DNA from: a virus
Lineage: Duplodnaviria; Heunggongvirae; Uroviricota; Caudoviricetes
DNA: 64,000 nt
Virus record (IMG/VR): IMGVR_UViG_2695420521_000002
Coordinates: 35,400-99,399 of that record
Direction: 5' to 3' (one strand)
Shown: positions 21,796 through 23,084 of the stretch, one piece after another
Layout of the letters: each line of letters opens with the position of its first letter
Position numbering within the stretch: the stretch's first letter is position 1
Made by a program: the position numbers and the translations under genes
The notes under the pieces: model-generated
The model's database searches: none
What the model was told of the DNA's origin: nothing
Seen by the model: the letters and a program-made list of their open reading frames with translations, nothing else

Positions 21796-22782
21796 TTAAT
21801 TTGAATTTGATGCAGTTATGTACGGCTGTTTTGCTGTCGTAAACGTCTCAATCATCTTCTCTGCGATCGCAGACCAGGTGTGACACTGGACCTTTTCAGC
21901 ATTTTTCACGCGATCAACGCGAGCAATAACCTCATCCCAATCAATCCGCGACTTGATAACCATATGGTTCACCAAAGCCAAGCGATCTGGCGGAAGGCAA
22001 TCGGGCGGCGTTAATATCAACGCCCCACACATTGCCGCCTCAAGAACAGTTAATCCAAGGCTTTCGGGATGCGTAACGATAAAAACGTCACTCTTACGCA
22101 ATTCAGCTGCAAATTCGGTTGCTGGCACCGGCGTCCGTCTGTATGGAGTTACCGAAATATTCCCTGGATCAATGGTAACCAATCCGTCATCGGTCAGCGT
22201 TCTGGCCTCATACGGAACGGTCAGACGCTGAAGGTTCATAAGGATACTTAAGGAGTGATCAAAACCACTAACATCAAATGCAGCGTGGTCTACAAAAATA
22301 CGCAGAACATCGTCTGTTTTGGTTTCCAGATGGAACAGATCCTGATTCGCTGCCCATCCAACATGTTTGTTAAAGCGATTATGACGCTCTAACCTGCCGG
22401 GATTATCCAGGTACCGCCAGGTATCATCGCGGACAGTAAAAGTAATATCGACTGGTGCCGAATCCAGCATAGAACCGTCGTATACCTGGGCTACCCATCC
22501 AGTGAATCGACGACGCAGTTGCACGCCTATTTCCCTGGGCACCGTAGTAAAATACCGCAATCCTGGCGCTAAAATGGCTTTCGCAGAACATGCGGTCGCA
22601 GCAGTCAACACAGCTTCAACATAATCCTCCGGGCTTTCGACGCCGGGGGAATATGGACGATGGTATTGCAATGTTACCCCTGCCTCACTAAAGGCGCAGG
22701 CCAGGTTATAAGCCCACATTTCTGTATATGTTTTCACATCACTGATGGCTTCAAATTTTCGCCCAATGATCAGGATGTTCAT
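21796..22782 (-). CDS. GT-B family-1-like glycosyltransferase
   Basis: 328 aa; C-terminal ESLGLTVLEAAMCGALIL resembles the EX7E motif; last gene of ban operon. Confidence 0.45.
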   Translation of the reverse strand: MNILIIGRKFEAISDVKTYTEMWAYNLACAFSEAGVTLQYHRPYSPGVESPEDYVEAVLTAATACSAKAILAPGLRYFTTVPREIGVQLRRRFTGWVAQVYDGSMLDSAPVDITFTVRDDTWRYLDNPGRLERHNRFNKHVGWAANQDLFHLETKTDDVLRIFVDHAAFDVSGFDHSLSILMNLQRLTVPYEARTLTDDGLVTIDPGNISVTPYRRTPVPATEFAAELRKSDVFIVTHPESLGLTVLEAAMCGALILTPPDCLPPDRLALVNHMVIKSRIDWDEVIARVDRVKNAEKVQCHTWSAIAEKMIETFTTAKQPYITASNSN

Positions 22783-23084
22783 TGTGTCTCCTTTTCCCTG
22801 ACTAAAAGCTCATCCAGCTTGCTTTTATGTTTAAGCACATAGCCACATATTTTTCCTTTGGAGCTAATTTGCGGAATGGAATAATATTCCGGAAATACTA
22901 ATTCAGCCTTTTCTAAGACAAGTGAAACACCATAGCGCGCAACATGTCTGTCGATCATTTTTGCATCACTGAGATTACCTTTAATTGATAACCAGTCGTT
23001 GAGGTACATATGGTTACGATTGGCTTTTTTCAGCATGTCGCTCAACCAATTTTTATTACGTTTAGTTAGTTTCCGTTGCATCAA
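22779..23084 (-). CDS. hypothetical protein downstream of ban
   Basis: 101-aa ORF overlapping ban stop and the next gene's start by 4 nt each. Confidence 0.4.
   Translation of the reverse strand: MMQRKLTKRNKNWLSDMLKKANRNHMYLNDWLSIKGNLSDAKMIDRHVARYGVSLVLEKAELVFPEYYSIPQISSKGKICGYVLKHKSKLDELLVREKETQ

Follow-up and report, generated by a model that had tools for sequence, protein, structure and literature searches.

Related systems

Few phages have been used in genetics as much as P1, and resistance genes in Enterobacteriaceae are commonly carried by P1-like phage-plasmids. Roughly one in three P1 genes still has no assigned function. For dbn, which follows the replicative helicase gene ban, a putative glycosyltransferase activity has been in public annotation for some time, in the P1 record since 2004. 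That record (AF234172 / NC_005856) describes dbn as 'function unknown, possible glycosyltransferase', P7 names its ortholog glt, 'putative glycosyltransferase', and RCS47 lists a 'putative glycosyltransferase, Dbn'. The largest Dbn protein cluster (2,431 member sequences) is called 'glycosyltransferase family 4 protein' by NCBI, and RefSeq uses the same name. Here, we describe the dbn ortholog of a 64,000-nucleotide (nt) stretch of a Caudoviricetes genome (positions 35,400 to 99,399 of IMG/VR record IMGVR_UViG_2695420521_000002), referred to as the window, and the linkage of dbn homologs in other genomes to homologs of pmgO, pmgP, and pmgQ. Since dbn and its putative activity were already annotated, the glycosyltransferase call made in a preliminary description of this locus is correct but not new. 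The accompanying statement that such a capacity is not usually ascribed to P1 was overstated, as P1, P7, RefSeq, and NCBI annotations all carry it.

The four genes can be compared with several described systems. The core of Escherichia coli lipopolysaccharide (LPS) is the work of a set that includes the GT4 enzymes WaaG and WaaB, the GT8 enzymes WaaO and WaaJ, and WaaZ, the transferase of the third 3-deoxy-d-manno-oct-2-ulosonic acid (Kdo III). When WaaZ adds Kdo III, the terminal GlcIII-HepIV of the K-12 outer core is lost concomitantly (PMC6358824). The four P1 proteins appear to be remote relatives of this set and not orthologs, and the P1 cassette has no heptosyltransferase or kinase. In the region-2-type genes of group 2-like capsule and O-polysaccharide loci, a Dbn homolog lies beside a WaaZ-like/MptE-like gene, as PmgO/PmgP and Dbn do in the phage cassettes described below. 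Unlike the capsule loci, the phage cassettes lack the transporter, KpsC/S, and export genes, and they have the GT8-like PmgQ in place of GT4-type partners of ~700 and ~320 amino acids (aa). Dbn shares the GT-B fold with the alpha- and beta-glucosyltransferases of T4 (AGT and BGT) and with the Afh glycosyltransferase of phage HY126 but shows no specific similarity to them beyond the fold, and no modified-base pathway was seen among the genes scanned. The GtrABC seroconversion systems differ in all three components: none of the four proteins is of the GtrA (flippase), GtrB (GT2), or GtrC (GT-C) type, and their predicted folds are GT-B, WaaZ-like, and GT8-like.

Dbn of the window and of P1

The preliminary description had treated positions 21796-23084 as one gene. 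The 328-aa open reading frame (ORF) covers 21796-22782, and the upper 306 nt form a separate small gene, orf101. The gene and its motif are as follows:

21796..22782, minus strand: dbn ortholog, 328 aa by ORF call, a predicted GT-B, GT4-like glycosyltransferase
22039..22065, minus strand: Dbn E-x7-E motif in translation, E240-S-L-G-L-T-V-L-E248 (HPE240SLGLTVLE248; H238-P-E240), inside the block F234-x-V-T237-H238-P-E240-S241

Judged by its sequence, the 328-aa ORF is an ortholog of P1 Dbn. Nt 21840-22782 are 96% identical to P1 and 95-97% identical to 18 P1-type phage records in a megablast search. Alignment to the P1 gene downstream of ban, which had been proposed as a check, gave 94% aa identity to P1 Dbn (YP_006544.1 / AAQ14048.1), or 96% over aa 1-318 by tblastn, and the orthologs of P7, SJ46, and RCS47 are 96-98% identical. 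The protein also matches phrog_2518 (E 5.9e-227). Synteny is shared with P1 and SJ46, where dbn follows ban and converges on tail/baseplate gene 5, except that the window has orf101 inserted upstream of dbn and a YeeE/YedE gene inserted downstream. Because orf101 separates ban from dbn, the window protein probably starts at the conserved MNILIIG and not at the 8-codon-longer start of P1, so that 8 annotated N-terminal residues of P1 Dbn are missing. The last ~10 residues also differ from P1, which can be attributed to the insertion of the YeeE/YedE gene. These variable termini fall outside the folded core.

Fold and family of Dbn

Dbn is predicted by modeling to be a GT-B fold protein of the retaining GT4 type. 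The Dbn family was represented by an alignment of 68 homologs with 28-98% identity. An AlphaFold2 model built from this alignment had a predicted local distance difference test score (pLDDT) of 94.7 and a predicted template modeling score (pTM) of 0.90, and it consists of two alternating strand/helix domains: an N-terminal Rossmann domain (~aa 1-158) and a C-terminal domain (~159-300), followed by a C-terminal helix (303-314). Two Rossmann-like beta/alpha/beta domains, a cleft between them, and a C-terminal helix that returns to the N-domain are all present, as in GT-B enzymes. Foldseek comparison of the model with the PDB returned 98 matches at E <= 1e-3, and the best 50 of the 98 were all GT-B glycosyltransferases. 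Sucrose-phosphate synthase 6kih was the top match (E 9e-10), followed by GlgM, the glycosyltransferase of phage HY126, and glycogen synthase. The GT-B fold, whose absence the preliminary description had named as grounds for giving up its reading, is therefore what AlphaFold2 and Foldseek give.

The EX7E-like motif noticed earlier is supported by the family alignment, with E240...E248 conserved in the 68 homologs. F234, T237, H238, E240, S241, D102, W143, A144, and D175 are invariant across them, and E248 is present in at least 90%. The label 'family-1' holds in the sense of the Pfam name 'glycosyl transferases group 1', in essence the GT4 type of CAZy, and does not mean CAZy GT1. Compared with retaining GT-B enzymes of CAZy family GT4 (PimA, BshA, WaaG, WaaB, sucrose-phosphate synthase, and GlgM), Dbn is only 9-15% identical and is shorter than most. 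Its invariant D102, W143, D165-H166, D175, and T237-H238 are not the usual GT4 signature.

Sequence searches placed Dbn near the GT4-type families through its motif region. The sole Pfam match near threshold was Glycos_transf_1 (PF00534; E 3.6e-5, 23.8 bits against a gathering score of 26.4, aa 221-307), and matches to PF13524 and PF13692 were likewise below cutoff. Dbn thus has the E-x7-E motif but does not score above the curated threshold that a CAZy GT4 or Pfam assignment by sequence would use. PF00534-type Pfam matches at E < 0.01 were found for 21 of the 68 family members, and one member had a weak match to the Pfam GT4-conflict model (E 0.006). A NCBIfam search with Dbn gave nothing meaningful, and a single-sequence phmmer search of the sequences of solved structures gave noise only. 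The 68-homolog profile reached solved GT4 chains solely through the E-x7-E region; these included 8xsg (E 0.003), 3c4q, and 2gej, with MshA- and PimA-type chains among them. When the Dbn profile was compared by hhalign with the single E. coli WaaG and WaaB sequences, the matches were insignificant or confined to the motif. Dbn is acidic, with an isoelectric point (pI) of 5.6 overall and 5.8 for the N-domain (the acceptor side).

Linkage of dbn with pmgO, pmgP, and pmgQ

Three further genes of the window encode candidate transferases:

13880..14542, minus strand: pmgO, 220 aa, MptE-like/DUF115 protein, candidate WaaZ-like (Kdo/sialyl-type) transferase (Pfam MptE-like E 5.7e-5, below cutoff; phrog_4603 'alpha-2,3-sialyltransferase'; hhalign to E. 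coli WaaZ, probability 88%, E 2.7e-6)
13356..13982, minus strand: pmgP, 208 aa, second candidate MptE-like/WaaZ-like transferase and pmgO paralog (Pfam MptE-like E 3.2e-4, below cutoff; hhalign to WaaZ, probability 90%, E 1.6e-6, 188 columns)
11984..12685, minus strand: pmgQ, 233 aa, predicted GT-A fold, GT8-like glycosyltransferase with DxD motif D79-L80-D81

P1 annotation calls these genes 'putative morphogenetic', P7 names them hdmB, hdmC, and hdmD ('head morphogenesis'), and RefSeq labels pmgO 'alpha-2,3-sialyltransferase' and pmgQ 'glycosyltransferase'. A small PmgO/PmgP family profile aligned with E. coli K-12 WaaZ over ~185 columns by hhalign (88-93% probability, E 3e-7 to 3e-6). Bacterial relatives of PmgO and PmgP gave weak matches to the NCBIfam models of WaaZ (Kdo III transferase), whereas PmgO, PmgP, and PmgQ themselves gave nothing meaningful against NCBIfam. 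The best structural matches of PmgQ include Skp1 alpha-GalT, glycogenin, and GlyE. Dbn, PmgO, PmgP, and PmgQ are all without transmembrane segments (maximum KD19 <= 1.55). The preliminary description had mentioned transferase-like paralogs elsewhere. No Dbn paralog was found among all 232 window ORFs of at least 60 aa (profile hidden Markov model and phmmer, best other E > 1); only PmgO and PmgP are paralogs of each other, and PmgO, PmgP, and PmgQ belong to folds or families other than that of Dbn.

The four families are physically linked in unrelated genomes. A P2-like contig (L251) carries a contiguous block of PmgO-like, PmgP-like, Dbn-like, and PmgQ-like genes on the same strand, right after terminase and portal without a gap, and the same contiguous block is found in the cultured coliphage EP_H11. 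A lambdoid contig has the four-gene block with one extra ORF, just upstream of terminase in the late region, and a 95-kb Citrobacter plasmid carries all four homologs. In both the lambdoid contig and the Citrobacter plasmid, a Dbn homolog (57% identity) is accompanied by two MptE-like ORFs and one GT-A-like ORF, and these three neighbors match pmgO, pmgP, and pmgQ of the window at E 1e-39 to 1e-90. In coliphage IME392, the Dbn-like and PmgQ-like matches are adjacent. In seven metagenomic phage contigs (10-281 kb), PmgQ homologs, one or two in number, come immediately after the Dbn homolog, and in a further contig (L102) the PmgQ homolog lies ~0.5 kb downstream. Several of these metagenomic loci also have nucleotidyl-transferase/mannose-P-isomerase-like, pyruvyl-transferase, and methyltransferase genes nearby. 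The cassette of the large phages lies between the terminase/portal/capsid block and the replication genes.

PmgQ homologs are the most constant neighbors of Dbn homologs. The linkage held in each phage or plasmid context outside P1 that was analyzed, across 30-57% identity. Among GenBank phage records, 22 have a Dbn homolog, and each of these has one of PmgQ as well; 9 have PmgQ without Dbn. P1 and the window carry the cassette in two parts, pmgO-pmgP-ppp-pmgQ (11984-14542) and dbn (21796-22782), on the same strand. Between the two parts lie pmgL-pmgN and, in the opposite orientation, the tail/baseplate operon 26-25-7-24-6-5. The slot that the Dbn homolog has in the contiguous cassettes elsewhere is taken by ppp, a Ser/Thr phosphatase gene located between pmgP and pmgQ. 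Ahead of pmgN, the P1 record has a C1 operator, Op83, and a predicted promoter. In the literature searched, we found no mention of the linkage of dbn with pmgO, pmgP, and pmgQ, and no function for any of the four beyond essentiality and transcript tables.

Two observations on individual cassettes were made. In the 111-kb phage EP_H11, the cassette is completed by a PmgP-like ORF that lies unannotated between two annotated hypothetical genes (OP688485.1 ~42813-43448; 5400-6035 of the extracted locus, L253). In the P2-like contig, a gene for a 1,354-aa KAP-family NTPase (L251 7644-11708) is next to the cassette, in the interval from the portal side to the GPA replication gene; such variable regions often house defense or accessory genes.

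Outside phages and plasmids, Dbn homologs at 32-42% identity are found in polysaccharide loci dependent on an ATP-binding cassette (ABC) transporter. Each homolog has a WaaZ-like gene and two genes of the GT4 type beside it, and transporter genes of the KpsMT type are close by. The bacterial capsule-type locus with the 42%-identical homolog contains, in order, an ABC-2 permease, an ATPase, a 696-aa GT4, a 319-aa ORF, an MptE-like/WaaZ-like ORF, the Dbn homolog, two Capsule_synth genes (KpsC/S-type), and Poly_export. The core order recurs in two loci of Brucella pseudogrignonensis, which read Wzz-like, ABC-2, ATPase, a 734-aa GT4, a 322-aa GT4-like ORF, MptE-like, and Dbn-like. The 322-aa ORF was tested as a Dbn paralog and is not one.

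Proposed function and alternatives

From sequence and models, P1 is predicted to encode one GT4-like, one GT8-like, and two WaaZ-like enzymes, which are the kinds of enzymes that build LPS core. We consider it somewhat more probable than not that Dbn, PmgO, PmgP, and PmgQ act in one pathway, and that the set assembles a short Kdo/hexose glycan on an envelope-type acceptor, most likely LPS-core-like or capsule-like. P1 probably builds a small glycan. A wider proposal is more tentative and we regard it as possible only: that P1-type phage-plasmids, P2-like and lambdoid prophages, and ~110-kb coliphages have in common a four-enzyme, mobile glycan-synthesis cassette, and that this cassette makes an LPS-core-like (Kdo/hexose) oligosaccharide that remodels the host LPS core or decorates the virion.

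The conserved linkage suggests that the products of the contiguous and mobile cassette, in the order PmgO-like, PmgP-like, Dbn-like, and PmgQ-like in other phages, would act jointly. Both halves of the split P1 cassette would belong to the C1 regulon and be de-repressed together on induction or infection, because pmgO-pmgP-ppp-pmgQ is under its own C1 operator, Op83, and dbn lies behind ban. The donors and the acceptor are less certain. Host nucleotide sugars may serve as donors, with uridine diphosphate-hexose used by Dbn and PmgQ and a cytidine monophosphate-Kdo-type donor used by PmgO and PmgP, and the short Kdo/hexose glycan may be built on a cytoplasmic-face acceptor to give an envelope glycoconjugate. 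P1 uses the terminal glucose of the LPS core as its receptor. Remodeling or masking of the receptor would therefore be the most economical purpose, as an accessory function that is dispensable for plaquing in the laboratory.

The useful part of this analysis is the link between dbn and the 'putative morphogenetic' genes pmgO, pmgP, and pmgQ through a cassette that moves between phages as one piece and whose relatives occur in capsule loci. Four annotations that had stood apart can be gathered into a single hypothesis open to experiment: a pathway for a Kdo/hexose glycan, encoded by the phage. With the LPS core as its target, the pathway would let a phage edit its own receptor in a manner not seen before; with the virion as its target, it would be, to our knowledge, the first virion glycosylation in a coliphage. 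We know of no demonstration of a glycosylation capacity for P1, and either target, if true, would be one.

Several points weigh against the proposed envelope-glycan pathway. The activity, donor, and acceptor of Dbn are predictions. The PF00534 match is below threshold and is confined to the latter half of the C-terminal domain. In many GT4 enzymes, the first strand of the C-domain is followed by G-R...K-G, which contains the diphosphate-binding Arg and Lys. After strand 160-164, the first of its C-domain, the Dbn family reads V-D165-H166...D175-H176, with D-R at 175-176 in distant members, and the donor chemistry may therefore be atypical. R216, conserved in at least 90% of the family, could stand in for the basic residue that binds the donor diphosphate. 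No basic or amphipathic membrane patch is apparent from the sequence of Dbn. In P1, dbn lies 7 kb from its presumed partners and ppp fills its cassette slot, and the P1 relatives phi456 and JK004 have PmgQ without Dbn. Within a lytic cycle of one hour, newly made LPS cannot displace the LPS already in the outer membrane. Since the genes are C1-repressed, an effect on the LPS of lysogens (lysogenic conversion) would not be expected unless the internal dbn promoters of the P1 record, which are predictions, are real. Lastly, knock-down of dbn, pmgO, pmgP, ppp, or pmgQ by CRISPR interference (CRISPRi) leaves plaquing unchanged (PMC10695390).

The main rival explanation is that the four enzymes put a short glycan on a P1 structural protein, or on another phage protein. 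The positions of the cassettes could support this: right after terminase and portal in the P2-like contig, just upstream of terminase in the late region of the lambdoid contig, and between the terminase/portal/capsid block and the replication genes in large phages. Glycosyltransferase clusters beside structural genes are known from mycobacteriophages and chloroviruses, and MptE-like/DUF115 domains are found in Maf flagellin glycosyltransferases. The structural matches of PmgQ include enzymes of protein glycans (Skp1 alpha-GalT, glycogenin, and GlyE), and transcripts from the P1 late promoter LPpmgL, upstream of pmgL-pmgM, could continue into pmgN-pmgQ. The 'putative morphogenetic' and 'head morphogenesis' names would also fit, but these labels are positional guesses and do not come from genetics. 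The closest non-phage homologs are in capsule-type polysaccharide loci and not in protein-glycosylation loci, and knock-down caused no plaquing defect. Glycosylated P1 virion proteins were not reported in the literature searched, and, in contrast to the virion glycosylation clusters of mycobacteriophages, no virion glycan of P1 is known to us. We consider a virion or other phage-protein target unlikely compared with an envelope-type acceptor.

A second alternative, to which we give slightly less weight again, is that Dbn is a stand-alone accessory enzyme unrelated to PmgO, PmgP, and PmgQ, with a small-molecule or host-protein acceptor, for example in anti-defense or host takeover. Dbn is compact (328 aa) and soluble, and its gene is physically apart from the other transferases in P1. 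Its structural matches include sucrose-phosphate synthase, BshA, GlgM, and a tetrahydrobiopterin glucosyltransferase, and the weak GT4-conflict match of one family member and the variable-region setting of the P2-like cassette, next to the KAP NTPase gene, are of the kind that such a role could produce. However, the persistent linkage with PmgQ is hard to explain without a shared pathway. There was also no match to the PADLOC defense models at E <= 0.01 for Dbn or for PmgO, PmgP, PmgQ, and orf101.

The preliminary description had suggested envelope or DNA glycosylation. The envelope part is plausible from the context of the homologs, whereas a DNA role is unlikely given the acidic character of Dbn and its polysaccharide-type associates. 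For a DNA role, Dbn would add a sugar to phage bases as protection against restriction, like the T4 alpha- and beta-glucosyltransferases or the arabinosyl-5-hydroxycytosine enzyme of HY126, and co-transcription of dbn with the replicative helicase gene ban could be taken as a hint of this. The structural matches of Dbn to phage DNA glycosyltransferases are no better than those to dozens of unrelated GT4 enzymes, though, and no base hydroxymethylase or hydroxylase was found among the P1 genes annotated at 45-94.8 kb or the subset of window ORFs scanned against Pfam. P1 DNA is ordinary Dam/Dmt-methylated DNA, and we know of no glycosylatable modified bases in P1. The pI values of the whole protein and of its N-terminal acceptor domain also argue against a DNA substrate. 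Because the constant partners are GT8-like and Kdo-transferase-like and the bacterial homologs lie in polysaccharide loci of the capsule type, a glycan or envelope glycoconjugate role is favored and DNA glycosylation appears highly improbable.

Selection and distribution of dbn

Dbn is under strong purifying selection. The core of 318 codons is intact in 80/80 P1-like IMG/VR loci, and the median ratio of nonsynonymous to synonymous substitution rates (dN/dS) is 0.105 over 53 distinct alleles; for the window against P1, dN is 0.019 and dS is 0.14. The idea that dbn is a non-functional or decaying passenger gene at the end of an operon could draw on its dispensability in CRISPRi screens, an IS1 interruption in one Escherichia fergusonii plasmid, and the 8 N-terminal and ~10 C-terminal codons that differ between P1 and the window, but it is effectively refuted by the intact loci and dN/dS of ~0.1. 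Catalytic-motif residues that are invariant in 68 homologs and the location of the variable termini outside the folded core also speak against it. In a genome-wide CRISPRi screen, dbn was non-essential for P1 plaque formation (PMC10695390).

The Dbn family is rare in isolate genomes. A scan of 185,579 species-representative genomes gave 4 loci: 1 P1-like, 2 in Brucella pseudogrignonensis, and 1 fragment of 209 bp. The fragment, an Acinetobacter idrijaensis contig (JQCU01000263.1), has 99% protein identity to part of a P1-type dbn and is most likely E. coli P1-like contamination. IMG/VR scans with sub-alignments of distant and intermediate Dbn sequences returned mostly P1-like contigs and 4 additional non-P1 loci.

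Organization of the ban operon

The surroundings of dbn contain the following features:

20572..21735, plus strand: YeeE/YedE gene, convergent with dbn and the next gene downstream
21739..21790, no strand assigned: stem-loop, candidate terminator, located where dbn and the YeeE/YedE gene converge, between their stops, with a T-rich tail on the plus strand only
22779..23084, minus strand: orf101, small basic ORF, 100 aa from ATG 23081 or 101 aa from TTG 23084
23081..24451, minus strand: ban, 456-aa DnaB-like replicative helicase (Pfam DnaB_C E 2.5e-107, DnaB E 2.8e-35; 97.5% nt identity to P1 ban)
27458..27485, no strand assigned: bivalent C1 repressor operator (Op72ab equivalent) of the ban operon promoter, with two overlapping consensus matches (0 and 2 mismatches)

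The minus-strand block runs ban - orf101 - dbn. As had been described, dbn is the last gene co-oriented with ban, the YeeE/YedE gene downstream being on the plus strand. The ban stop and the orf101 ATG overlap as TGATG, the orf101 stop and the dbn ATG overlap as ATGA, and an AGGAG Shine-Dalgarno sequence precedes the dbn ATG. Because of these overlapping start and stop codons, the three genes look translationally coupled. The position of the C1 operator relative to dmt matches the P1 annotation. The ban operon extends from ~27.48 kb to 21.8 kb on the minus strand, with Pban/Op72ab, tRNAs, ban, orf101, and dbn, and it is C1-repressed in lysogens as in P1, since the bivalent C1 operator of Pban is conserved.

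A consensus scan for promoters and terminators around dbn found sites no more often than in shuffled sequences, and the internal dbn promoters predicted in the P1 record are therefore unsupported here. The stem-loop at 21739-21790 was missed by the consensus terminator scan. Its predicted RNA fold has an energy of -18.7 kcal/mol (z -3.6 against shuffles), and because the T-rich tail is found only on the plus strand, it is probably a terminator that came with the YeeE/YedE insertion.

The YeeE/YedE gene (Pfam Sulf_transp, E 2.9e-40) encodes a membrane transporter and lies in a segment (20459-21839) inserted between tail/baseplate gene 5 and dbn that is not in P1. In PLSDB, this insertion was found in two Escherichia fergusonii P1-like plasmids only, one of which has its dbn interrupted by IS1. 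Cargo of this sulfur/thiosulfate-uptake type is unusual for a phage-plasmid.

The product of orf101 is basic (pI 9.8), and its sole family assignment is phrog_12809, whose function is not known. It had no match in Pfam, NCBIfam, or PADLOC. An exhaustive search of 1.8 billion representatives found 6 representatives, and a word-index search of 5.8 billion proteins also gave no function. orf101 is absent from all GenBank P1-type phages, including P1, P7, and SJ46, and is present in 52 PLSDB plasmids and 13/80 IMG/VR P1-like loci, or ~11-16% of P1-like plasmids and contigs. Cronobacter phage JK004 and a small number of unrelated coliphages have ORFs with 33-37% identity to it. orf101 seems to have entered the ban-dbn junction as a small mobile insertion.

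Other differences from P1

The window is collinear with P1 at ~45-93 kb, with 96-98% identity. Six stretches have no P1 match: 20459-21839 (with the YeeE/YedE gene), 22783-23070 (orf101), 24816-26233, 5199-9683, 42742-44615, and 48182-49596. The last three have no match to P1 45-94.8 kb, and their P1 counterparts are roughly the pmgT-humD, rlfA/rlfB, and sim regions.

In the leader of the ban operon (24816-26233), the P1 genes tciA-tciB-tciC (and upl) are replaced by other genes:

24834..25661, minus strand: lipoprotein-like ORF, 275 aa
25642..25878, minus strand: hydrophobic ORF, 78 aa
26141-26227: extra tRNA-Ser(TGA)

The leader keeps tRNA-Asn, tRNA-Thr, and a tRNA with a CAT anticodon, which is tRNA-Ile2 in the P1 annotation.

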